Assembly: GCA_944380775.1 (NCBI GenBank)
Contig: CALWIP010000023.1
Location: 170,633 to 194,632, forward strand
DNA: 24,000 bases
Direction of reading: 5' to 3'
DNA from: an uncultured Clostridia bacterium
GTDB lineage: Bacteria > Bacillota > Clostridia > Oscillospirales > Acutalibacteraceae
Shown: positions 4,193 through 23,209 of the stretch, in pieces
Position numbering within the stretch: the stretch's first letter is position 1
Layout of the letters: every line of letters starts with the position of its first letter
Program-made: the position numbers and the translations under genes
The notes under the pieces: generated by a model
Seen by the model: the letters and a program-made list of their open reading frames with translations, nothing else
Told to the model about the DNA's origin: nothing
The model's database searches: none

Positions 4193-4963
4193 CTATGTTT
4201 TCCGCCCCGGCGCGGCCGGCGCCGCACAGGCGCGGTAAAAGTCCAGCGTGGCAAAGCCGCGCCCCAGCTGGCTGAGGACGTACTGTTCCGCCGCGTGCCC
4301 CAGCACGCACAAGCCCTCCTCCGGCAGCCGGAACGAAAACAGCTTTTCCAGTTCCGCATAAACGGTGTGCCGCAGGGCGGTGGTCACGCCGCGGTTCATC
4401 CGTACGGCGCGGGCCTCGCCCCTGGTAAAGCAGCTCCCGCAGAGCAGGCAGCCCTGCGAAGGCAAAAAAAACATCTCGTCCGCTTCATAGCAGGCGCAGC
4501 GCGCGCAACAGACGAGGTCCGGCTGGTAGCCGGCCAGCGCCATCATGCGCATTTCCACCACAGGCTTCAGCAGCAGCGGGGAACGCGCGCCCGCGCTGAG
4601 AAAATGGAGCGCATTGAGCATCACGCGCAAAAAGCCGTCTGCGGGCGCTTCCTCCGGGGCCAGCGCGCCCGCCAACTCGCAGAAGTACTGCGCCAGCGCC
4701 AGGCGGCTGATTTCCTCCCGCAGGCCGAAAAAAACCTCGACCGGCTGCGCCTCGTCGACGAGGTAGCGCTCCCGCCCACGGTAGAGCGTGAAGCGGGAAT
4801 AGCACAGGAGCTGGGTAGAGGAAGCCTTCCCGCTGCGCAGGCGCTTGGCCTGCCGCGCAAACGCTCGCACCACCCCGGCGTCCCGTGTCAAGATGCTGAC
4901 CAGGCGGTCATTTTCCCCCACGTTCCACTCCCGAATGACGAGCCCGTCCGTTTTGATCTGCAT
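4193..4963 (-). CDS. recO: DNA repair protein RecO
   Basis: The product begins MQIKTDGLVIREWNVGENDRLVSILTRDAGVVRAF (OB-fold N-terminus). It also has the Cys cluster CARCACYEADEMFFLPSQGCLLCGSC (RecO zinc finger). I place the start at the internal ATG at 4963 rather than the ORF-track start at 4987. Its position after era matches Firmicutes synteny. Confidence 0.85.
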   Translation of the reverse strand: MQIKTDGLVIREWNVGENDRLVSILTRDAGVVRAFARQAKRLRSGKASSTQLLCYSRFTLYRGRERYLVDEAQPVEVFFGLREEISRLALAQYFCELAGALAPEEAPADGFLRVMLNALHFLSAGARSPLLLKPVVEMRMMALAGYQPDLVCCARCACYEADEMFFLPSQGCLLCGSCFTRGEARAVRMNRGVTTALRHTVYAELEKLFSFRLPEEGLCVLGHAAEQYVLSQLGRGFATLDFYRACAAPAAPGRKT

Positions 4964-5075
4964 GCGTGCTCCCCTTCCGTGCGGCACAGCCGCCGCGCGC
5001 CAGCCGCGCGTATTCCAAATAAGCCGCCACGCTTCCGGTGGCGCAAAAGGCCTCCCAGGCCTGCTTCTGGTTCAT
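4908..5075 (-). CDS. YqzL-like small protein (55 aa), not in the ORF track
   Basis: Hand translation from ATG 5075 gives MNQKQAWEAFCATGSVAAYLEYARLARGGCAARKGSTHADQNGRARHSGVERGGK, with the stop at 4908-4910. The N-terminal 25 residues resemble the YqzL family (AW..F..TG.I.AYL.Y), which sits between era and recO in Bacillus. The 3' end overlaps recO by 56 nt in another frame. Confidence 0.45.
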   Translation of the reverse strand: MNQKQAWEAFCATGSVAAYLEYARLARGGCAARKGSTHADQNGRARHSGVERGGK

Positions 5076-5163
5076 CCCGGTCCCGTCCTTTCCGCGCTCA
5101 TGCGTTATTCAGTATTCGCCGCGCGGAAAACGGTATGTCAGGAAATATCAGGTCGAACGGCCG

Positions 5164-6081
5164 TCACTGGAAATCGTTTTCCCCGTAGCCGAGGCTGCGC
5201 AGCACGGCTTCCCGGTTGCGCCAATCCTCCTTGACCTTGACCCAGAGCTGCAAATTAACCTTGCAGCCGAAAAATTTTTCCATATCCTCCCGGGCGTAGG
5301 AGCCAACCCGCTTGAGCATGGCGCCGCCCTTTCCAATGATAATCCCCTTGTGGTTGACGCGCTCACAATAGATGGTCGCGTCGATGTCGGTGACGCCGTC
5401 GCCGCGCTCCTTCATGCGTTCCACGGAAACGGCCAGGCCGTGCGGGACCTCTTTGTCCAACAGGCGCAGCAGCTTTTCGCGCACAATTTCCCCGGCAAGC
5501 ACGCGTTCCGGCTGGTCTGTAAGTGTGTCGCGGTCGAAGAAATGCGGGCCGGACTCCGCCAAAGCCTTGAGCTCTTTTTTCAAATCCTGGAGGCCGTTGC
5601 CGTCCAGCGCCGAAACTGGCACGACCGCCCGGAACGGAAATAATTCCGAATATGCGGCGATCTGCGCGAGCAGCTTCGATTTCTCCTCCAAGAGGTCGAT
5701 CTTATTCACTGCCAAAACAGCGGGCAAGCCCTGGCTCTGGAACCGCGCGATCAATTCGCGGTCCGCGGGGGAGATCTTCTGTCCCGCCTCCACCACGAGC
5801 AGGCAGGCGTCCACGCCGGAGACAGACTCCACCACCGAACGCACCATGTAGGAATCCAGCCGGTCGTGCGGCTTGTGCAGGCCGGGGGTGTCCAAAAAAA
5901 CAAGCTGGGTCTCCTCCTCGGTGAGCACACCCATGATGCGCGTGCGCGTGGTCTGCGGCTTGCGGGAGACGATGGCCACCTTCTGCCCTAAAAGGGCGTT
6001 GAGCAACGAGGACTTGCCCACGTTGGGCCGCCCAACAATGGCGAGAAACGCCGTTTTTTCCTGAAGTTCCTGATTAACCAA
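5164..6081 (-). CDS. era: GTPase Era
   Basis: 305 aa with G1 GRPNVGKSSLLN, G3 DTPG, NKID and a C-terminal KH domain (IYCERVNHKGIIIGKGGAMLK). The start is TTG at 6081, preceded by GGAG 7 nt upstream. Confidence 0.95.
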   Translation of the reverse strand: MVNQELQEKTAFLAIVGRPNVGKSSLLNALLGQKVAIVSRKPQTTRTRIMGVLTEEETQLVFLDTPGLHKPHDRLDSYMVRSVVESVSGVDACLLVVEAGQKISPADRELIARFQSQGLPAVLAVNKIDLLEEKSKLLAQIAAYSELFPFRAVVPVSALDGNGLQDLKKELKALAESGPHFFDRDTLTDQPERVLAGEIVREKLLRLLDKEVPHGLAVSVERMKERGDGVTDIDATIYCERVNHKGIIIGKGGAMLKRVGSYAREDMEKFFGCKVNLQLWVKVKEDWRNREAVLRSLGYGENDFQ

Positions 6082-11074: not shown

Positions 11075-11311
11075 ATGATTTTTTCCAACCGCTCCAAAAA
11101 GCAGGGATTGTTCGGAGGTTCCGTCGAGCCCGACTGTTCCTATTGCAGCAACCACACCGGCGAAGACGGCGCGGCCGGCTGCCGCTTTCATCTGACGCTG
11201 GAACCCGGCGGTTCCTGCCGGAAATTCACCTACGACCCGCTCCTGCGCACGCCGGAAGCGCCGGCCGGGTTTTCCGGCGGCTCATTCGACCCGGACGACT
11301 TCGCGCTGTAG
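11075..11311 (+). CDS. Small hypothetical protein with four Cys (CxxC...C...C)
   Basis: 78 aa, with a purine-rich ribosome-binding site AAAAGGGGA upstream. Cys residues at 21, 24, 36 and 48 (DCSYCSNH..AGCRFH..GSCRKFTYDP), then an acidic C-terminus. The family is not recognised with confidence. Confidence 0.55.
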   Translation: MIFSNRSKKQGLFGGSVEPDCSYCSNHTGEDGAAGCRFHLTLEPGGSCRKFTYDPLLRTPEAPAGFSGGSFDPDDFAL

Positions 11312-11450: not shown

Positions 11451-11939
11451 ATGCAAGCTTCTGTTTTGCGCGCATTCCGCCGCTCGATGGCTGGCGCCAT
11501 CGCTTTTTGCCTGACGGCGGCGCTGTTCTTATCCGTCGGGGTTTTCGGCCTGACGCGCGGCGAGTGGGTGTTCCTCGCAGGCATCGCGGACGGCCTGCTG
11601 CTCCTGCTCCTGGCGTGGTTTGCCGGCCCGGTTTATCAATTCGGCAAGCTCCCCGCGCGCGGGGTCGCGCCGCTGGCCTCGCTGCCCGCCCCGAAAAACC
11701 TGTTCCAATATTGGACGCATTACCGGGCGCTGGACCATGAGCTCGGCCTTCCCAAGAAAAAAGCGGCGGTTTACGCGCCGCTGCTTTTGACAATCCTCGC
11801 CGCCGTCCTGCTGGTTGCTGCGGTGTTCCTCATTGGGAACGCGCTGTTCCCCGCCGGCCCGGCGATGGGCATGGACCCCGGCATGGGGATGGATATGGAC
11901 ATGGGCATGGCCGGAATGGAGGCCGTCGCTATCGGATAG
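11451..11939 (+). CDS. Hypothetical membrane protein with three predicted TM segments and a Met-rich C-terminal tail
   Basis: I chose ATG at 11451 because AAGGAGG lies 6 nt upstream. Hydrophobic segments are AIAFCLTAALFLSVGVFGL, WVFLAGIADGLLLLLLAWFAG and VYAPLLLTILAAVLLVAAVFLIG. The tail reads PAMGMDPGMGMDMDMGMAGMEAVAIG. Confidence 0.6.
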   Translation: MQASVLRAFRRSMAGAIAFCLTAALFLSVGVFGLTRGEWVFLAGIADGLLLLLLAWFAGPVYQFGKLPARGVAPLASLPAPKNLFQYWTHYRALDHELGLPKKKAAVYAPLLLTILAAVLLVAAVFLIGNALFPAGPAMGMDPGMGMDMDMGMAGMEAVAIG

Positions 11940-11945
11940 TCAAAA

Positions 11946-11973
11946 GGGCTGCCCCGCGGGGCGGCCCTTTTTG
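11946..11973 (+). terminator. Rho-independent terminator after the Met-tail membrane protein gene
   Basis: GGGCTGCCC (11946-11954) pairs with GGGCGGCCC (11959-11967) around a CGCG loop. TTTTT follows at 11968-11972. Confidence 0.6.
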
Positions 11974-11976
11974 CGC

Positions 11977-12005
11977 TGGACTTTTCCCCGCCGCCATGAT
12001 ATACT
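11977..12005 (+). promoter_or_regulatory. Promoter driving the structured non-coding region upstream of the RT
   Basis: TGGACT (11977-11982), a 17-nt spacer and TATACT (12000-12005), with TG at 11997-11998 (extended -10, TGaTATACT). The predicted start is near G12012, the first base of the left inverted-repeat arm. Confidence 0.5.
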
Positions 12006-12011
12006 GAACAT

Positions 12012-12204
12012 GCGGACGGGGCGGCAGCGTTTGCCTGCTTTCCGCAGGGGGCCGGCGAGTCGCGCGGCCTATTTTTGTTTGAGCGGCGCAAAGCTCCGCT
12101 TTGCCGGGGAACGCGGTCCTCGACGTGTTCACGACATCTTTCCAGATGTAACCACACGCCTGCGGCCGCCTTCCCGTAGAATTTTTTGTGCCGCCCCGCG
12201 CCGC
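12012..12204 (+). ncRNA. Candidate retron msr-msd non-coding RNA
   Basis: The left arm GCGGACGGGGCGGCA (12012-12026) is complementary to the right arm TGCCGCCCCGCGCCGC (12189-12204), giving 10+4 bp and enclosing 162 nt. G12027 in an AGC context follows the left arm. Local hairpins lie at 12034-12048, 12050-12069 and 12088-12104. A long imperfect hairpin spans 12107-12175. The region sits directly upstream of, and co-oriented with, a retron-type RT. Confidence 0.5.
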
Positions 12205-12283
12205 TTTCTTTATTTAAAACTCTTTTTATAAAAAGTCTCCAGGAAATCAAAAGGGATGCGCATCTGCGCAAGGAGGCAGGGGA

Positions 12284-13309
12284 ATGTCGCCCGAATTGAT
12301 GGCGTTCTGCGCCTATTGCTATCCCGGCCGGGATGAAGAAGGCCTGCGGCGTGCGTATGGCCAAATGATCCGCTTCACCCGCAAGCGGCTACAGACCGGT
12401 TTTTACACCGCGCTGCGCCTGCCAAAGCCCGGCGGCGGCGAACGCGTGGTCTTGGCGCCCAGCCCGGGCCTCAAGCGGGCGCAGGCGGCCGCGGCTTTGC
12501 TGCTCGCGGCGGAACCGGTCTCGCCCTACGCATGCGCCTACCGCAAGGGCGTTTCGCTGCGGGACAACGCCGCGCCGCACACCGGCGCGCCGCTGCTGCT
12601 CAAAACGGACCTGCGGGATTTCTTCGGCAGCGTCCGCTTCCCGGCGGTTTACCGCGCGTTTGACGGCGCGCTGCACCGCGCGCCGCCGCCGTTTCTGGCG
12701 CGCCGCCCGGAGGGGGAACCGTATCCGCTCAGCTTTTTCCTCGCGCGGCTTTGTACCTGCGAAGGCTCCCTCCCGCAGGGTTCCCCTGCCAGCCCCGTGC
12801 TCTCGAACCTGGCGTTTGCCGCCTGCGACCGCCGCATTGCCGCGTACTGCGGGGAACGGGGCATTTCCTACACCCGCTACAGCGACGACCTCACGTTCTC
12901 CGGCAAATTCTCCGCAGAGGCGCTGCTGCGCTTTCTGGACCGCCTGCTCGAGGACTCCGGTTTTTCGCGCCACCCGGGCAAGACGGCCGCCGCCGGCCCC
13001 GGCGCGCGCCACCGGGTAACCGGGCTTTCCGTCTCCGACCGGGTGCTCGCCCCGCGTGAATTCCGGCGTGCGATCCGCCAAGAATTTTATTATATCCAAA
13101 AATTCGGCCTTGCGCCGCATCTGGCCCGCCGGGGCGGGCCGGATTCCCCCGAAGCGCAAGAGGCCGCGCTGGCCGCGCTGCTTGGGCGCGTCTCGTTCGT
13201 CCTGCAAATGGACCCGCAGAACCGCGACTTCCTGCGCTACCGCGCGCTCTGCCTCGGCCCGCTGCGGGACGCCGTCGCCCGCGAATACCGGTACAGGAGG
13301 TTTCTATGA
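12284..13309 (+). CDS. Retron-type reverse transcriptase (RNA-directed DNA polymerase)
   Basis: AGGAGG lies 7 nt upstream of the ATG. Motifs are NAAPH (aa 95-99), LLLKTDLRDFFGSV (motif A), LPQGSPASPVLSNL, YTRYSDDLTFS (YxDD) and HRVTGLSV (VTG). At 341 aa it has no maturase or endonuclease domain. Confidence 0.9.
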   Translation: MSPELMAFCAYCYPGRDEEGLRRAYGQMIRFTRKRLQTGFYTALRLPKPGGGERVVLAPSPGLKRAQAAAALLLAAEPVSPYACAYRKGVSLRDNAAPHTGAPLLLKTDLRDFFGSVRFPAVYRAFDGALHRAPPPFLARRPEGEPYPLSFFLARLCTCEGSLPQGSPASPVLSNLAFAACDRRIAAYCGERGISYTRYSDDLTFSGKFSAEALLRFLDRLLEDSGFSRHPGKTAAAGPGARHRVTGLSVSDRVLAPREFRRAIRQEFYYIQKFGLAPHLARRGGPDSPEAQEAALAALLGRVSFVLQMDPQNRDFLRYRALCLGPLRDAVAREYRYRRFL

Positions 13310-14136
13310 ACATCGGCTGCCATTTGTCCATCGCCAAAGGCTACCGCGCAATGGGCGATCAGGCGCTTGCCCTCGGCGCCAACACGTTTCAATTTTTCAC
13401 CCGCAGCCCGCGCGGCGGCAAAAGCAAAGCGGCGGACCCCGCGGACCTGGCCGCGCTGCGCGCGCTACTGGCAGAGCGCCGGTTTGCCCCCCTGGTTGCG
13501 CACGCGCCGTATACGCTCAACCCCTGCGCAAAGGACGAGGGCCTGCGGGACTTTGCGCTGCGCGTGATGCGGGAAGACCTCGCGCTGCTCGCGCAGCTAC
13601 CGGGGAATTTTTATAACTTCCACCCCGGCTGCCATGTCGGCCAAGGCGTCGAAACCGGCGTCGCGTGGATTGCCGCGCTGCTCAACCAGGTGCTGCCTGC
13701 GGCGGAGGGCTGCGGCGTCCTGCTCGAAACGATGTCCGGCAAGGGCAGCGAGATCGGCGGGCGCTTTGAGGAATTGCGCGAGATCATCAGCCGCGTGGAG
13801 GGAAACGGCGCGCTCGGCGTCTGCCTGGACACCTGCCATGTGTATTCCGCGGGGTACGACCTCGTGAACGACTTGGACGGCGTTTTGACGGAATTTGACC
13901 GCGTGATCGGCCTGCAACGCTTAAAGGCGGTGCATTTGAACGACAGCCTGACGCCGTTCGCCAGCCGAAAGGACCGGCACGCAAAGATTGGCGAGGGTTC
14001 GCTCGGTTTGGATGCGATTTCGCGGATCCTTTTCCACCCGGCGCTGCGGGACCTCCCTTTTGTGCTGGAGACGCCGAATGAATTGGACGGTTACCGGGAA
14101 GAAATCCGCCTGCTGCGCGGCCTTGCGCCCGCATAA
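13306..14136 (+). CDS. nfo: Endonuclease IV (deoxyribonuclease IV, AP endonuclease family 2)
   Basis: 276 aa and collinear with E. coli Nfo. All metal-ligand blocks are present: AHAPYTLN, NFHPGCH, LLETMSGKG, LDTCHVYSAGYD, HLNDS, RKDRHAKIGEG and FVLETP. The ATG overlaps the RT stop (ATGA at 13306-13309), and the Shine-Dalgarno AGGAGG lies at 13295-13300. Confidence 0.95.
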   Translation: MNIGCHLSIAKGYRAMGDQALALGANTFQFFTRSPRGGKSKAADPADLAALRALLAERRFAPLVAHAPYTLNPCAKDEGLRDFALRVMREDLALLAQLPGNFYNFHPGCHVGQGVETGVAWIAALLNQVLPAAEGCGVLLETMSGKGSEIGGRFEELREIISRVEGNGALGVCLDTCHVYSAGYDLVNDLDGVLTEFDRVIGLQRLKAVHLNDSLTPFASRKDRHAKIGEGSLGLDAISRILFHPALRDLPFVLETPNELDGYREEIRLLRGLAPA

Positions 14137-14159
14137 CGGCGAAACAGGGAGGGATGGCG

Positions 14160-15770
14160 ATGAAACGGCTGCAGGGAACCGGGACTTGCGCAGGGTTTGC
14201 AGAAGGCCCCGTGTTTTTTTACCGGCGCGCAACTGCCGGCGGAGGGCCTGGGGGCGGCGGGGAAACGGAAGCCGCGCGCCTGGCGCTTGCCTACCGGCAG
14301 GCGGACCGGCAGCTGGAGGACCTGCGCCGCCTGGCGGAGGAAGAGGCCGGCGCGGAAAGCGCCCAGATTTTTGAAATCCACCGGATGATGCTCGCGGATG
14401 AGGATTTCCGGCAGTGCGCCGCCGCTGCGGTGGAACGCGGCGTTTCCGCCGAAGAGGCGGTTTGGCAGGCGGCGGAGCAATTTTCCGCCCTGCTGGAGCA
14501 GACCGGGGATCCGCTGCTGAGCGAACGCGCCGCCGACGTGCGCGACGCCGCGCGCACGCTGGAAAACGCCCTGTGCGGCGGGGAACCGCCTGCGCTGGAA
14601 TTCCCACAGCCGGTCATCCTGGCGGCGGAGGACCTTTCCCCCAGCGAAACGGTGCGCCTGGACAAACGCCAGGTGCTCGCCTTCCTCACTTCCGGCGGGA
14701 CGGCGCAGTCTCACACGGCGATCCTCGCACGCTCGTTGGGGATCCCGGCTGTGGTGGGCCTCGGCCCCGCGCTCGACGCAAGCTGGGACGGCGGCGACGC
14801 GCTGGTAGACGGGGGCCGCGGCATCGCGGTTCTCTCCCCTGATGCGGAGGCCCGCCGCCGGTTCCGGGAGGGGCAGGCGCTGGCTGCGAAAGAACAGCGG
14901 GAGCTCTCCCGTTTCCGGGACGTGCGTTCCGTCACCCGCAGCGGGCGGGCGGCGCCCGTTTGCGCGAATGTGGGCGCGCCGGGGGATCTGGACGCCGCGC
15001 TGGAGTCTGGCGCCGAGGGCATCGGCCTGTTCCGCACCGAATTTTTCTATCTCTCGCGGGAACAGCCGCCCACAGAAGAAGAACAATTCGCCGCCTACCG
15101 CGAAGCGCTGCGGCGCATGGGCGGGCGGCAGGTTGTGTTCCGCACGCTGGACGCCGGTTCCGACAAACAGGCGGCCTGCCTGGACCTCCCCGCCGAGCAA
15201 AACCCGGCGCTGGGCCTGCGCGGCCTGCGGTTCTGCCTTGAGCGCCCCGGCCTGTTCCGCACCCAGCTGCGCGCGCTGTACCGCGCCGCCGCAGAGGGGA
15301 ACGCAGCTATCATGTTCCCGATGGTGGCGTCCCTCTGGGAATTGCAGGAGGCAAAGGCGGCTGCGCGGGCCGTGCAGGACGAACTGCGCGCCGAAGGCCT
15401 CCCGTTCCGGGAAAAGGTCCCGCTCGGCGTGATGATCGAAACGCCGGCCGCGGCCGTCCTCAGCGCGGACCTCGCGCGCGAAGCGGATTTTTTCAGCATC
15501 GGGACAAACGACCTGACCCAATATGTCCTGGCGGCGGACCGCCTCTCGCCCGCCCTGCGGCGGTTTTACGACCCGCTCCACCCCGCCGTGCTGGCCCTGA
15601 TGCGCGCCACCGTGGAAAACGCCCACCGTGCGGGCATCCCCGCCGGCGTTTGCGGCGAAGTCGCGGCGAATCCCCGGGCGGTCCCGCTTTTGCTGGAGAT
15701 GGGTGTGGACAAGCTCTCCGTCGCGCCGCCGTCCGTTTTACCGGTGCGCGCCGCGGTCTGCGCCTTTTAA
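14160..15770 (+). CDS. ptsI: Phosphoenolpyruvate-protein phosphotransferase (PTS enzyme I)
   Basis: Contains the active-site His block GGTAQSHTAILARSLGIPAVVG, plus GLFRTEFFYL, MIETPAA and FSIGTNDLTQY. I prefer ATG 14160 because of its spacing from GGGAGGG; 14154 is the alternative. Confidence 0.9.
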   Translation: MKRLQGTGTCAGFAEGPVFFYRRATAGGGPGGGGETEAARLALAYRQADRQLEDLRRLAEEEAGAESAQIFEIHRMMLADEDFRQCAAAAVERGVSAEEAVWQAAEQFSALLEQTGDPLLSERAADVRDAARTLENALCGGEPPALEFPQPVILAAEDLSPSETVRLDKRQVLAFLTSGGTAQSHTAILARSLGIPAVVGLGPALDASWDGGDALVDGGRGIAVLSPDAEARRRFREGQALAAKEQRELSRFRDVRSVTRSGRAAPVCANVGAPGDLDAALESGAEGIGLFRTEFFYLSREQPPTEEEQFAAYREALRRMGGRQVVFRTLDAGSDKQAACLDLPAEQNPALGLRGLRFCLERPGLFRTQLRALYRAAAEGNAAIMFPMVASLWELQEAKAAARAVQDELRAEGLPFREKVPLGVMIETPAAAVLSADLAREADFFSIGTNDLTQYVLAADRLSPALRRFYDPLHPAVLALMRATVENAHRAGIPAGVCGEVAANPRAVPLLLEMGVDKLSVAPPSVLPVRAAVCAF

Positions 15771-15808
15771 CCGCAGCGCAACGAAAAGACTTCCTCAACG
15801 CAGGCAAA

Positions 15809-15846
15809 ACGGCCCGCCCCGGAAGACCGGGACAGGCCGTTTTTTA
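15809..15846. terminator. Bidirectional rho-independent terminator between ptsI and kdgK
   Basis: ACGGCC-cg-CCCGG aaga CCGGG-aca-GGCCGT (15809-15840), flanked by AAAA on the left and TTTTT (15841-15845) on the right. Confidence 0.6.
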
Positions 15847-15858
15847 TGCCGGTTACAA

Positions 15859-16881
15859 TTACCGCTGTACGCGGCCGGAGCCGTCGCCGCCGGCCAATTT
15901 TTTGACTTCGTCGACGGAGACCTGGTTAAAATCCCCTTCGATGGTGTGCTTAAGGCAGCTCGCCGCCACGGCGAATTCGATCGTCTCCTGCGGGCCGTAG
16001 CCATTCAGCGCCGCATAGATCAGGCCGCCGCCGAAGCTGTCGCCGCCGCCGACCCGGTCCACAATGTGGATCGGGTAGCTCTTGCTGAAATAGCTCTCCC
16101 CATTTTCATAGAGCATGCCCGCCCAGTGGTTGTCGTTCGCGGAGAGCGACGTGCGCAGCGTGATGGCAACTTTTTGGAAGCCGAAGCGCTCCGCCAGCTG
16201 GCGCGCGACGTCGCGGTAGCCCTCGTGGTCCAGCTTGCCGCCCGTCACGTCAGTGCCCGCCGCCTTGATGCCAAACACGTCGGCGGCGTCCTCCTCGTTG
16301 GAGATGCAGACATCGACATATTCCATCAGGCCGGCCATCACCTGCCCGGCCTTTTCCCGGCTCCACAAGTTCTTGCGGTAGTTGAGGTCGCAGCTCACCG
16401 GAACGCCCAGTTTTTTCGCCGCGCGGCACGCGTCCAGGCAAATGGCGGCCACGTTGTCGCTCAGCGCCGGGGAAATGCCGGTAAAGTGGAACCAGTCCGC
16501 CCCCTGGAAGATTGCATCCCAGTCAAATTCCTCCGGAGACGCCGTCGCGATGGCGGAACCCGCACGGTCGTAGATGACTTTGGAGGGGCGCTGACTCGCG
16601 CCCTTTTCCAAAAAATAGATGCCGATACGGCTGCCGCCCCGCACGATGCGGGAGGTATCCACCCCGTAGCGGCGCAGCGCATTGACCGCCGCCTGGCCAA
16701 TCTCGTGGGACGGCAGTTTCGTGACAAAGCTGGCGTCCACCCCGTAATTTGCAAGGGAGACCGCCACGTTCGCCTCGCCGCCGCCGTAGGTTGCGCCCAA
16801 GCTCTCCGCCTGGACAAACCGGTAGTAGCCCTCCGGCGCAAGCCGGAGCATGATTTCGCCAAATGTAACAACTTTTGCCAT
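15859..16881 (-). CDS. kdgK: 2-dehydro-3-deoxygluconokinase (PfkB family)
   Basis: 340 aa. Starts MAKVVTFGEIMLRLAP, contains GGGEANVAVSLANYG, and has the C-terminal anion-hole motif DRVGGGDSFGGGLIYA. Located downstream of eda. Confidence 0.9.
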   Translation of the reverse strand: MAKVVTFGEIMLRLAPEGYYRFVQAESLGATYGGGEANVAVSLANYGVDASFVTKLPSHEIGQAAVNALRRYGVDTSRIVRGGSRIGIYFLEKGASQRPSKVIYDRAGSAIATASPEEFDWDAIFQGADWFHFTGISPALSDNVAAICLDACRAAKKLGVPVSCDLNYRKNLWSREKAGQVMAGLMEYVDVCISNEEDAADVFGIKAAGTDVTGGKLDHEGYRDVARQLAERFGFQKVAITLRTSLSANDNHWAGMLYENGESYFSKSYPIHIVDRVGGGDSFGGGLIYAALNGYGPQETIEFAVAASCLKHTIEGDFNQVSVDEVKKLAGGDGSGRVQR

Positions 16882-21335: not shown

Positions 21336-22805
21336 ATGGCTGACCAAGAGAGAGGAAACCAATTCCTGCGGGAAAACATGACCATGCTCACCGACTTTTA
21401 CGAGCTAACGATGGCGAACGGCTACTTTGCCAACGGCTTTGCAGACACCACCGTTTACTTTGACATGTTCTTCCGGCGCGTGCCGGACGGCGGCGGCTTC
21501 GCGATTATGGCAGGCGTACAGCAGCTGGTGGAATACCTGGAAAACCTCCATTTCACCGCGGAAGACATCGCGTTCCTGCGCGCCAAAAAGCTATTCAGCG
21601 AAGATTTTTTGAACTACCTGCAAAATTTTGAATTCAGCTGCGACGTGTGGGCCGTGCCGGAGGGCACCCCGATCTTCCCGGGCGAGCCGATTGTTACCGT
21701 GCGCGGCCCGGTGGTGCAGGCGCAGTTCATTGAGACCATGGTGCTGCTGAGCATCAACCACCAGAGTATGATTGCAACCAAGGCCAACCGCATTGTGCGC
21801 GCCGCCCAGGGCCGCGCGGTGATGGAATTCGGCTCCCGCCGGGCGCAGGGCTGCGACGGCGCGGTGTACGGCGCGCGCGCCGCTTATATCGGCGGCTGCT
21901 GCGGCACAGCCTGCACCATCTCGGACCGCCGCTTCGGCATCCCCGCCCTGGGGACAATGGCGCACAGCTGGGTGCAGATGTTTGACACCGAGCTCGACGC
22001 CTTCCGCGCTTACGCAAAAGAATACCCCCACCAGTGCACCCTGCTGGTGGACACTTACAACGTGCTGAAATCCGGCGTACCAAACGCCATCCGGGTCTTC
22101 CGGGAGGAGCTGCTGCCGCAGGGCTTCCGCCCCGCCGGCATCCGCATCGACAGCGGCGACATCACCTACCTTTCGCGCAAGGCGCGCCAGATGCTGGACG
22201 ACGCCGGTTTTGAAGACTGCAAGATTTGCGCCTCCAATTCGCTGGATGAATATATCATCCGGGACATGCTCATCCAGGGCGCGCAGGTGGACAGCTTCGG
22301 CGTCGGCGAACGGCTCATTACCTCTTCCTCCGAGCCGGTGTTTGGGGGCGTGTACAAATTGTCCGGCGTGGAAACGCCGGACGGCGCCATCATCCCGAAG
22401 ATTAAAATCTCGGAAAATGTCTCGAAAATCACCACGCCGTGCTTCAAGAAGCTCTGGCGCCTGTTTGACCGGGAGAGCGGCAAGGCGATTGCGGACCTGA
22501 TTACGCTGCACGACGAAGTGGTGGACGACAGCAAACCGTATGTTCTCTTTGACCCGGAGCATGTGTGGAAGCGCAAACAGGTGACAAATTTCCGCGCGGT
22601 GAACCTGCGCACGCAGCTCTTCGCCAAAGGGAAAAAGGTTGCGAAGGAGCGCAGCCTGCAGGAGATTCAGGACTACTGCCGCAGCCAAGTGGACACGCTC
22701 TGGGACGAAGTGACGCGCTTTGAAAACCCGCATGAATATTATGTCGACCTTTCGCAGCCGCTTTGGGACATTAAGAACCGGCTGATCTGCGAGCACACGA
22801 TGTGA
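21336..22805 (+). CDS. pncB: Nicotinate phosphoribosyltransferase
   Basis: 489 aa. Contains N-terminal LTDFYELTMANGYF, then EFGSRRAQG, GTMAHSWVQ and IRIDSGD, matching the NAPRTase family. GGAAGGA lies 6 nt upstream of the ATG. Confidence 0.9.
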   Translation: MADQERGNQFLRENMTMLTDFYELTMANGYFANGFADTTVYFDMFFRRVPDGGGFAIMAGVQQLVEYLENLHFTAEDIAFLRAKKLFSEDFLNYLQNFEFSCDVWAVPEGTPIFPGEPIVTVRGPVVQAQFIETMVLLSINHQSMIATKANRIVRAAQGRAVMEFGSRRAQGCDGAVYGARAAYIGGCCGTACTISDRRFGIPALGTMAHSWVQMFDTELDAFRAYAKEYPHQCTLLVDTYNVLKSGVPNAIRVFREELLPQGFRPAGIRIDSGDITYLSRKARQMLDDAGFEDCKICASNSLDEYIIRDMLIQGAQVDSFGVGERLITSSSEPVFGGVYKLSGVETPDGAIIPKIKISENVSKITTPCFKKLWRLFDRESGKAIADLITLHDEVVDDSKPYVLFDPEHVWKRKQVTNFRAVNLRTQLFAKGKKVAKERSLQEIQDYCRSQVDTLWDEVTRFENPHEYYVDLSQPLWDIKNRLICEHTM

Positions 22806-22858: not shown

Positions 22859-23205
22859 GCGAGCAGGCCAGACGGCTGCGGGCAGCGCCCGAAAGAGCCT
22901 GCCTGAGGAAAGTCCGAGCTCCACAGGGCAAGAATAACGGCTAACGGCCGCCGGGGGCGACCCTAGGGAAAGTGCAACAGAGAGATACCGCCGCCCAGTG
23001 CGGTAAGGGTGGAAAGGCGAGGTAAGAGCTCACCAGCGCGCGGGAGACCGCGCGGCTCTGCAAACCCTATTCGGAGCAACACCGTGGAGGGACACATGCG
23101 CCGGCCCGGCGCGTCCCGAGGAGGTGGCACTGAGCCGCGACGGCAACGTCCGGCCAAGATAGATGGCCGTCCAAGACAGAACTCGGCTTACAGGCCTGGT
23201 CGCAC
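22859..23205 (+). ncRNA. rnpB: RNase P RNA, bacterial type A
   Basis: Universally conserved blocks are present: GAGGAAAGTCCGAGCTCCACAGGGCA, GGGAAAGTGCAACAGAGAG, GGTAAGAGCTCACCAG and ACAGAACTCGGCTTACAGG. The ends GCGAGCAGGCC (22859-22869) and GGCCTGGTCGC (23193-23203) pair as helix P1. Confidence 0.9.
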
Positions 23206-23209
23206 TAAA

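Follow-up and report, generated by a model that had tools for sequence, protein, structure and literature searches.

Does the overlap between a retron reverse transcriptase (RT) gene and a DNA-repair gene mark a functional partnership, or is the repair gene only a neighbor that the retron came to precede? This question is raised by a stretch of 24,000 nt (hereafter the window) from an uncultured Clostridia bacterium (assembly GCA_944380775.1, contig CALWIP010000023.1), in which a retron RT gene runs into nfo, encoding endonuclease IV, and is followed by ptsI, encoding enzyme I of the phosphotransferase system (PTS). The window served as the reference locus, and all coordinates are window positions, on the + strand unless otherwise stated. 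The RT stop codon TGA (13307–13309) overlaps the nfo ATG (13306–13308) in an ATGA (13306–13309), and the nfo Shine-Dalgarno (SD) sequence AGGAGG (13295–13300) is embedded in the RT open reading frame (ORF), so that the junction spans 13295–13309; the original prediction, made from this sequence, had given these positions correctly. That prediction offered two readings: (a) a new retron configuration with Nfo as the functional partner, and (b) a retron lodged upstream of a housekeeping nfo-ptsI operon, with its effector elsewhere, possibly the transmembrane (TM) protein encoded at 11451–11939. We consider it quite probable that the locus goes back to one ancient event, in which a two-component retron inserted between the terminator of the TM gene and the ribosome-binding site (RBS) of nfo, and that nfo, here together with ptsI, is a passenger of the retron transcript. 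The window retron is accordingly described here as an orphan, Ec107-like/III-A-related retron, and not as a new retron-nuclease defense system.

The RT ORF (12284–13309; 341 aa) has its own SD sequence, AGGAGG, at 12272–12277. The protein matches Pfam RVT_1 and hits 59 PADLOC retron RT models, and it contains the motifs used to define retron RTs (NAxxH, YxDD and VTG; PMC6868368) in the form NAAPH (region X), YSDD and VTG, with catalytic columns invariant in eight homologues; it belongs to the retron lineage of RTs. In the RT of the related locus L003/L020, AAG is found in place of the VTG motif (L003:1180–1200), which is retained in the window, in L015 and in the other homologues. Upstream of the RT gene, and co-oriented with it, lies an msr-msd noncoding RNA (ncRNA) of about 190 nt (12012–12204), bounded by the a1 (12012–12026) and a2 (12189–12204) arms, the cores of which (12017–12026 and 12189–12198) form a perfect 10-bp inverted repeat closing the fold. 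Its msr hairpins have an invariant GCGAGUCGC motif, its msd part forms a long hairpin, and, folded as a single sequence, it is more stable than its shuffles (minimum free energy −95.8 kcal/mol, z −3.47). The same RNA precedes four related RT genes in other assemblies, and the RNAalifold consensus for these five loci had 58 pairs, 27 of which show compensatory changes on both sides. The G directly 3' of a1 (12027) is the same in 5/5 aligned ncRNAs and is likely to be the branching (priming) G, by analogy with the published retron mechanism (PMC7736814). No Rfam family matched the ncRNA, at gathering or permissive thresholds. Given its RT family and its conserved, covarying ncRNA, this locus is a retron, and it would be expected to synthesize multicopy single-stranded DNA (msDNA).

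The best PADLOC model for the window RT was RT_Ec107-like (E 4.8e-78), followed by RT_III-A (E 3.7e-77), but the lead was of only 3 bits (260.6 bits versus 257.7 bits for RT_III-A PDLC02942). P0007, P0012 and P0011, deeper relatives grouping with the window RT, scored 384–398 bits with RT_Ec107-like versus 301–333 bits, a lead of more than 50 bits. The model scores therefore suggest that the RT belongs to an Ec107-like/III-A group, within which the two models are tied for the window subclade, so that its placement in the Ec107 branch proper is only tentative. Branches of RTs without an associated protein have already been described, the Retron-Eco5 (Ec107) orphan branch being a prominent case (Mestre et al. 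2020, PMC7736814), and the absence of a recognized retron effector, correctly reported in the original prediction, fits this branch. Like Ec107, the window retron has no associated protein and occupies an intergenic chromosomal site without mobile-element hallmarks, and the related RTs of L001, L002, L010 and L011–13 are likewise solo.

This RT is uncommon: among 5.8 billion proteins, a search yielded 66 hits, the closest with 52% identity, and an exact look-up of the window RT gave no record. No RT of more than 39% identity was present in phage and plasmid collections, and a scan of the contigs of GTDB representative genomes with the RT, a set outside which the window's genome lies, retrieved no relative. 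Gene contexts were readable for eight distinct RT relatives. The RT-ATGA-nfo junction was found in three lineages, namely the window, L003/L020 (RT 53% and Nfo 66% identical to those of the window) and L015/L016 (51.5% and 66%, respectively), and the ATGA overlap with nfo is kept in each of them. These three lineages are also syntenic, sharing yqfD and yabP (both on the − strand), a Gate-domain gene, a small Cys-rich ORF, the TM gene, the retron and nfo, in this order. The RT is solo in the five other contexts (L001, L002, L010, L011–13 and L014), with unrelated flanks, mostly on the opposite strand. No neighbor is common to the eight related RT contexts, except nfo in the one syntenic lineage, and no cognate effector co-occurring or co-evolving with the RT across its clade was apparent in the window and these eight contexts. 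Similarly, a homologue of Nfo, the TM protein or PtsI was found within 4 kb of the RT in none of 80 retron-RT loci from IMG/VR viral contigs (0/80). In a neighbor-joining (NJ) tree of the RTs, the nfo-linked sequences were monophyletic (bootstrap 96) and sister to the solo RTs of L001 and L002 (bootstrap 93). Because the linkage is restricted to a single monophyletic and syntenic RT subclade, it reflects one evolutionary event rather than a recurrent association. The comparison of RT homologues proposed with the original prediction thus revealed adjacency to nfo only in this subclade.

Some of the related loci deserve separate comment. The solo RT of L001 lies by a GGDEF-EAL gene, and a GGDEF-EAL gene also comes after nfo in L015; L001 as a rearranged L015 locus was nevertheless rejected, because the two GGDEF-EAL proteins are only 27.5% identical. 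In L011 (950–5480), and also in L012 and L013, a solo Ec107-like RT gene is divergent to an operon of WYL, Macro and Metallophos genes plus two genes of unknown function, and this neighborhood could be of the defense type for that subclade. L005 is identical to the window over the 3' end of the RT gene and the first ~600 nt of nfo (L005:1–1420) and beyond this stretch switches allele within nfo, with another gene downstream; its Nfo is 90% identical to that of the window. Owing to this switch, L005 was not accepted as an independent lineage and is probably a chimeric assembly or a recombinant strain.

A retron-free version of the site was found in L004 (GCA_944381295.1, a metagenome-assembled genome [MAG] of an uncultured Clostridia bacterium), which has yqfD, yabP, the Gate-domain gene, the TM gene and nfo in the order of the window. 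The TM stop codon and the nfo ATG are separated by 120 nt in L004, containing a terminator and an SD sequence; the interval measures 1366 nt in the window and 1340 in L020. No RT or ncRNA remnant was detectable in L004. The nfo leader of L004, TTATGGAGGAATTTATGA, is recognizably the same as the sequence encoding the last RT residues at the occupied loci (the corresponding L015 sequence is TTATGGAGGAAACTATGA), and its motif TTATGGAGGAA..ATGA is retained at the RT-occupied loci, where the final few RT codons lie in the nfo leader. In the alignment, the C-terminal tails of the nfo-linked RTs are 5–8 residues longer than those of their solo sisters. The match to the L004 leader and these longer tails together indicate that the RT frame extends across the ancestral leader of nfo as far as the TGA. 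The nfo gene of L004 itself contains an in-frame TGA (L004:4476–4535) at a position at which all other Nfo proteins have Gly (..ETPNELE*YAAEIRLLRKEW..), with the frame open for 16 more codons; sequencing error, nonsense mutation and recoding are possible explanations.

Of the three relatives, L004 was nearest to the window for 5/5 shared proteins. Its identities to the window exceeded those between the window and L015 for YqfD (57% versus 55%), YabP (72% versus 64%), Gate (52% versus 48%), the TM protein (59% versus 42%) and Nfo (76% versus 66%). Under the resulting topology, ((window, L004), L015), loss in the L004 lineage is the simplest history; the retron therefore appears to have been lost at least once, although the direction of gain and loss is deduced from these comparisons. 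The RT identity between the window and L015 (51.5%) falls within the range of the flanking genes (42–66%), and synonymous divergence (dS) between L020 and L015 was 1.05 for RT and 1.10 for nfo, with ratios of nonsynonymous to synonymous divergence (dN/dS) of 0.14 and 0.06, respectively. The G+C content at third codon positions (GC3) of the RT gene is 0.82, versus 0.79–0.83 for host genes; the window genome has 63% GC and its relatives have about 50%, and the hosts differ by 12 points. An RT identity in the range of the flanks, a dS equal to that of nfo and a host-like GC3 argue that the retron has been at this site since before the lineages split, and we suggest that it has been vertically inherited under purifying selection (dN/dS ~0.14).

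The linked Nfo shows the features of a complete endonuclease IV. It matches Pfam AP_endonuc_2 (175 bits) and, over its full length, NCBIfam TIGR00587 (261.8 bits versus a cut-off of 129.65), and its matches in the PDB include 3AAL (E 7e-64) and 1QTW (E 5e-39). The nine residues equivalent to the ligands of the trinuclear metal center are present (H66, H106, E141, D175, H178, H210, D223, H225 and E255), in agreement with the intact metal-ligand blocks of the original prediction, and these positions are invariant in 119–120 of the 120 Nfo sequences aligned. Identity to thousands of ordinary Firmicutes Nfo is 65–76% for the window protein and 65–70% for the linked Nfo proteins. The smallest NJ clade uniting the Nfo proteins of the window and L003 held 44 of the 120 sequences, including some from unrelated contexts, such as MurJ-nfo-response-regulator and PadR/nfo/DUF134, and the nearest neighbor of the window Nfo among the 120 was that of the retron-free L004 (76% identity). 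Mean identity to other Nfo was 0.665 for the window and 0.645 for L003, versus 0.651–0.674 for unlinked proteins, a comparison of evolutionary rates to be read with the caveat that the set consists of the top hits to the window Nfo. By these comparisons, the linked Nfo is an ordinary, housekeeping-type endonuclease IV (apurinic/apyrimidinic endonuclease and 3'-diesterase), neither forming a clade of its own, a check proposed with the original prediction, nor accelerated. As a retron-specific partner, Nfo would have been expected to show independent recurrence of the linkage, a clade of its own and joint loss with the RT, and none of the three was found.

The left boundary of the insertion is the intrinsic terminator of the TM gene (11942–11976), a perfect 13-bp stem followed by a U-run (−26.7 kcal/mol, z −4.05), which has an equivalent in L004, L020 and L015. 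It is followed at 11977–12005 by a candidate retron promoter of the sigma-A type with an extended −10 element (TGGACT, 17 nt, TGaTATACT); the promoter scan yielded three sites versus 0.5 expected, and a TGnTAnanT extended −10 element is aligned at the identical position in L003, L015, L001 and L002, suggesting that the site acts as a promoter. At the other end, nfo (13306–14136; 276 aa) and ptsI (14154–15770; 538 aa) are closely spaced, as had been predicted, with an exact gap of 17 nt instead of the ~20 nt given. The prediction that the junctions lack terminators also stood: neither the RT/nfo nor the nfo/ptsI junction forms a stable hairpin (folding z +1.5 and +0.9), and the first strong terminator is at 15806–15845. 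The latter is a bidirectional intrinsic terminator (−24.2 kcal/mol, z −4.11, followed by U6, and also detected on the minus strand), located between ptsI and the convergent kdgK gene (PfkB kinase; 15859–16881, − strand). No terminator and no promoter-like site was found when 12005–15806 was scanned, setting aside one terminator-like match inside the ncRNA (12160–12179). This match was rejected, as such hits occur at chance level (12 found versus 9.1 expected), and it is unlikely to terminate transcription because it is located upstream of the a2 repeat, which the retron RNA requires. On the basis of this locus anatomy, msr-msd, RT, nfo and ptsI are most likely co-transcribed from the retron promoter, and translation of Nfo would begin at the ATGA through coupling or re-initiation.

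The terminator-like score falls within a conserved U-run, GGAAUUUUUUG (12160–12188), which leads from the msd stem to a2 in 5/5 ncRNAs and could modulate read-through into the RT gene. Between a2 and the SD sequence of the RT gene, the window has a specific segment of ~70 nt (12205–12271) with two small palindromes, absent from L003, L015 and L001.

The history that we propose begins in an ancestor of this uncultured Clostridia lineage, in which a two-component orphan retron, consisting of a promoter, the msr-msd ncRNA and the RT gene, would have inserted into the ~120-nt spacer between the TM terminator and the nfo RBS. The RT frame would have extended into the pre-existing nfo leader, its stop being a TGA made up of the last two letters of the nfo ATG and the initial A of the second codon. 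Since the insertion, nfo, and in the window genome only also ptsI, would have been transcribed from the sigma-A-type promoter of the retron. The RT presumably makes msDNA from the msr-msd fold at the 5' end of this transcript, primed at G12027, while Nfo would have stayed an ordinary repair enzyme and not become a retron effector.

An alternative is that RT, ncRNA and Nfo constitute a tripartite retron of a kind not yet described, with Nfo as an effector set free when phage is sensed, an msDNA-maturing nuclease or a reader of msDNA damage. The ATGA overlap with the SD inside the RT gene is conserved in three lineages, the equal dS of RT and nfo speaks for long joint travel, no other effector lies within ~11 kb, and the catalytic residues of Nfo appear intact. 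Nevertheless, we regard this reading as unlikely, since only one monophyletic RT subclade, in one syntenic host lineage, shows the linkage, which amounts to a single event. The sister and deeper RTs are solo, as are the 80 other loci with respect to Nfo, and the linked Nfo proteins are neither a clade nor accelerated. Moreover, L004 keeps nfo at the same site without RT and ncRNA, unlike the situation expected for toxin-type effectors, and a literature search on retrons and Nfo or apurinic/apyrimidinic endonucleases found, in the library searched, no paper linking the two. It is equally unlikely that the retron was co-opted together with Nfo, with an RT:Nfo stoichiometry fixed by the ATGA, Nfo trimming or inspecting msDNA, or the msDNA-RT complex regulating Nfo. 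If true, the retron would be wired to an enzyme of base-excision repair instead of a toxin, and Nfo would be the first candidate partner for orphan Ec107-like retrons. The same observations (single-event linkage, solo sisters, 0/80, L004 and an ordinary Nfo) speak against reading (a) of the original prediction.

A late or repeated arrival of the retron, through a mobile element targeting nfo leaders or lateral spread between lineages, would account for the nesting of the retron-free L004 among retron-bearing lineages, and Ec107, too, took the place of a short intergenic palindrome, a possible hint that sites next to hairpins are preferred. However, RT divergence tracks that of the flanking genes, RT and nfo have the same dS, and the GC3 of the RT gene is fully host-like despite the 12-point difference in GC between hosts; furthermore, the nfo-linked RTs are monophyletic and their solo sisters occupy unrelated sites without nfo. 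Such an arrival is thus very unlikely. Least credible of all is the TM protein as the real effector, an idea prompted by type IV retrons and their two-TM effectors. Its gene is indeed adjacent to the retron and co-oriented with it in the window and L003/L020, and it encodes a membrane protein without family assignment. Nonetheless, the gene ends in a strong terminator of its own before the retron promoter, it lies beside nfo in the retron-free L004 (59% identity), none of the solo RT loci or the 80 viral-contig loci has it, and its product has no PADLOC hit. In L015, three repeats and a methyltransferase gene on the opposite strand lie between the TM gene and the retron. The TM candidate of the original prediction is part of the ancestral synteny. 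Of reading (b), the lodging of a retron upstream of a housekeeping nfo was borne out, and neither the conserved nfo-ptsI operon nor the TM effector could be upheld.

Several points weigh against the single ancient insertion that we favor. It is based on few lineages, three with the retron and one without, and the data are metagenomic contigs; the single retron-free relative found is a 5.7-kb MAG contig, and the trees are NJ trees only, on few sequences. Three lineages retain the 4-nt RT/nfo overlap after divergence to ~52% RT identity, as they would in a functional operon, although its retention would also be expected if nfo expression had come to depend on the retron promoter. In addition, the chemistry of Nfo is directed at DNA 3' ends and includes a 3'-5' exonuclease activity (PMC9562005), and a role in trans in msDNA trimming is chemically conceivable.

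If the retron was inserted once and then inherited vertically under purifying selection, as we propose, it should be of some benefit although no toxin is encoded in cis. Such prolonged vertical retention with no effector nearby would imply an unlinked partner or an effector-independent role, and our best guess is that it works in one of these two ways, which have already been put forward for the Ec107 branch. The 2020 classification left open whether orphan retrons use effectors in trans or have another function (PMC7736814). The locus provides a clean natural case of an effector-less, Ec107-like retron kept vertically at one core-genome site across deep divergence, and paired genomes with and without the retron could be used to address why orphan retrons persist, a question raised in the same 2020 study (PMC7736814). 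It would also show that a retron, on inserting, can take over the expression of a housekeeping gene, and recognizing this avoids a false annotation of a "new effector" resting on adjacency alone.

The gene following nfo varies between loci. PtsI has the three domains of phosphoenolpyruvate (PEP)-utilizing enzymes and matches TIGR01417 (474 bits versus a cut-off of 341.7), but ptsI was found downstream of nfo in the window only: it is absent after nfo in L004, where a GNAT acetyltransferase gene is found, in L015, with a gene for a 162-aa protein of unknown function, and at the other loci, and no ORF begins within 115 nt after nfo in L020. ptsI is therefore not a conserved member of an RT-nfo unit, and it is probably a lineage-specific downstream passenger of the shared transcript. 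On the other side of the retron, the TM protein (11451–11939) has a Met/Gly/Asp-rich C-terminal tail, MGMDPGMGMDMDMGMAGM, the character of which is conserved in L004 and L015, with no family hit above threshold, and a metagenome scan with this protein retrieved one additional contig only, from the L003 species. In L015, the TM gene is ~1.3 kb from the retron; three direct repeats of ~120 bp (L015:4450–4720) and then the methyltransferase gene (4802–5563, opposite strand) lie between the TM terminator and the retron promoter. A Cys-rich protein of 71–78 aa (CxYC...C...C; 11075–11311) without family match is encoded in the interval from the Gate-domain gene to the TM gene, and also in L015 and L004.

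The remainder of the window is core genome: ylxM, mutS2, recO, era, dgkA, ybeY, phoH, kdgK, eda, iclR, uppP, pncB and the RNase P RNA, the last of bacterial class A (22860–23206; 242.9 bits). No integrase, transposase, mobility or defense genes were found among the other window proteins, and PADLOC yielded no defense family for them, save weak winged helix-turn-helix matches of the IclR regulator; nor did Pfam or PADLOC reveal an effector family in the window. The nicotinate phosphoribosyltransferase (NAPRTase) encoded at 21336–22805, the sole phosphoribosyltransferase (PRTase) in the window, was considered as a type-III-like PRTase effector and rejected: it is a standard three-domain, pncB-type enzyme, located 8 kb away past unrelated genes and without a PADLOC hit.

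How does this locus compare with known systems? Housekeeping Nfo proteins (E. coli 1QTW, Geobacillus 3AAL and Bacillus 1XP3) match the same family model and have the same nine ligands, and the window nfo differs from them only in its mode of expression, its leader being occupied by the 3' end of the RT gene. The "endonuclease IV" of phage T4 (DenB), the trigger of Retron-Eco2, has in common with Nfo only its name and a link to the retron literature: DenB is a phage-encoded, deoxycytidine-specific single-stranded DNA nuclease of the PD-(D/E)xK type, unrelated to the TIM-barrel Nfo, and it is a trigger, not a retron component. Type III-A retrons (e.g. Mx162/Mx65) have a closely related RT, as judged from the second-best PADLOC model, and the vertical inheritance and host-like codon usage suggested here recall the vertical inheritance and host-like codon bias of myxobacterial retrons (PMC6868368). 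However, type III-A retrons carry a PRTase-like effector, with or without a winged-helix protein, and neither partner was found beside the RT in the window or in the eight related contexts.

The closest parallel is Retron-Eco5 (Ec107). The RT_Ec107-like model was the best PADLOC match, and both retrons consist of an ncRNA and an RT only, with no conserved associated protein, and lie at an intergenic site of the core chromosome without mobile-element hallmarks, Ec107 having replaced a 34-bp palindromic intergenic sequence (PMC6868368). Both also have a misleading housekeeping neighbor, nfo in the window and, for Ec107, a pyrE-type PRTase gene, which was judged to be possibly unrelated in function (PMC7736814). 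The differences are that the host of the window retron belongs to a Clostridia lineage, whereas that of Ec107 is E. coli; that the catalytic box is YSDD and not YCDD; and that the window subclade ties with one RT_III-A model, which makes its placement in the Ec107 branch proper tentative. Finally, the RT ORF of the window is fused to the translation start of its neighbor, and it is for the window lineage that vertical inheritance with co-divergence was demonstrated at the sequence level.

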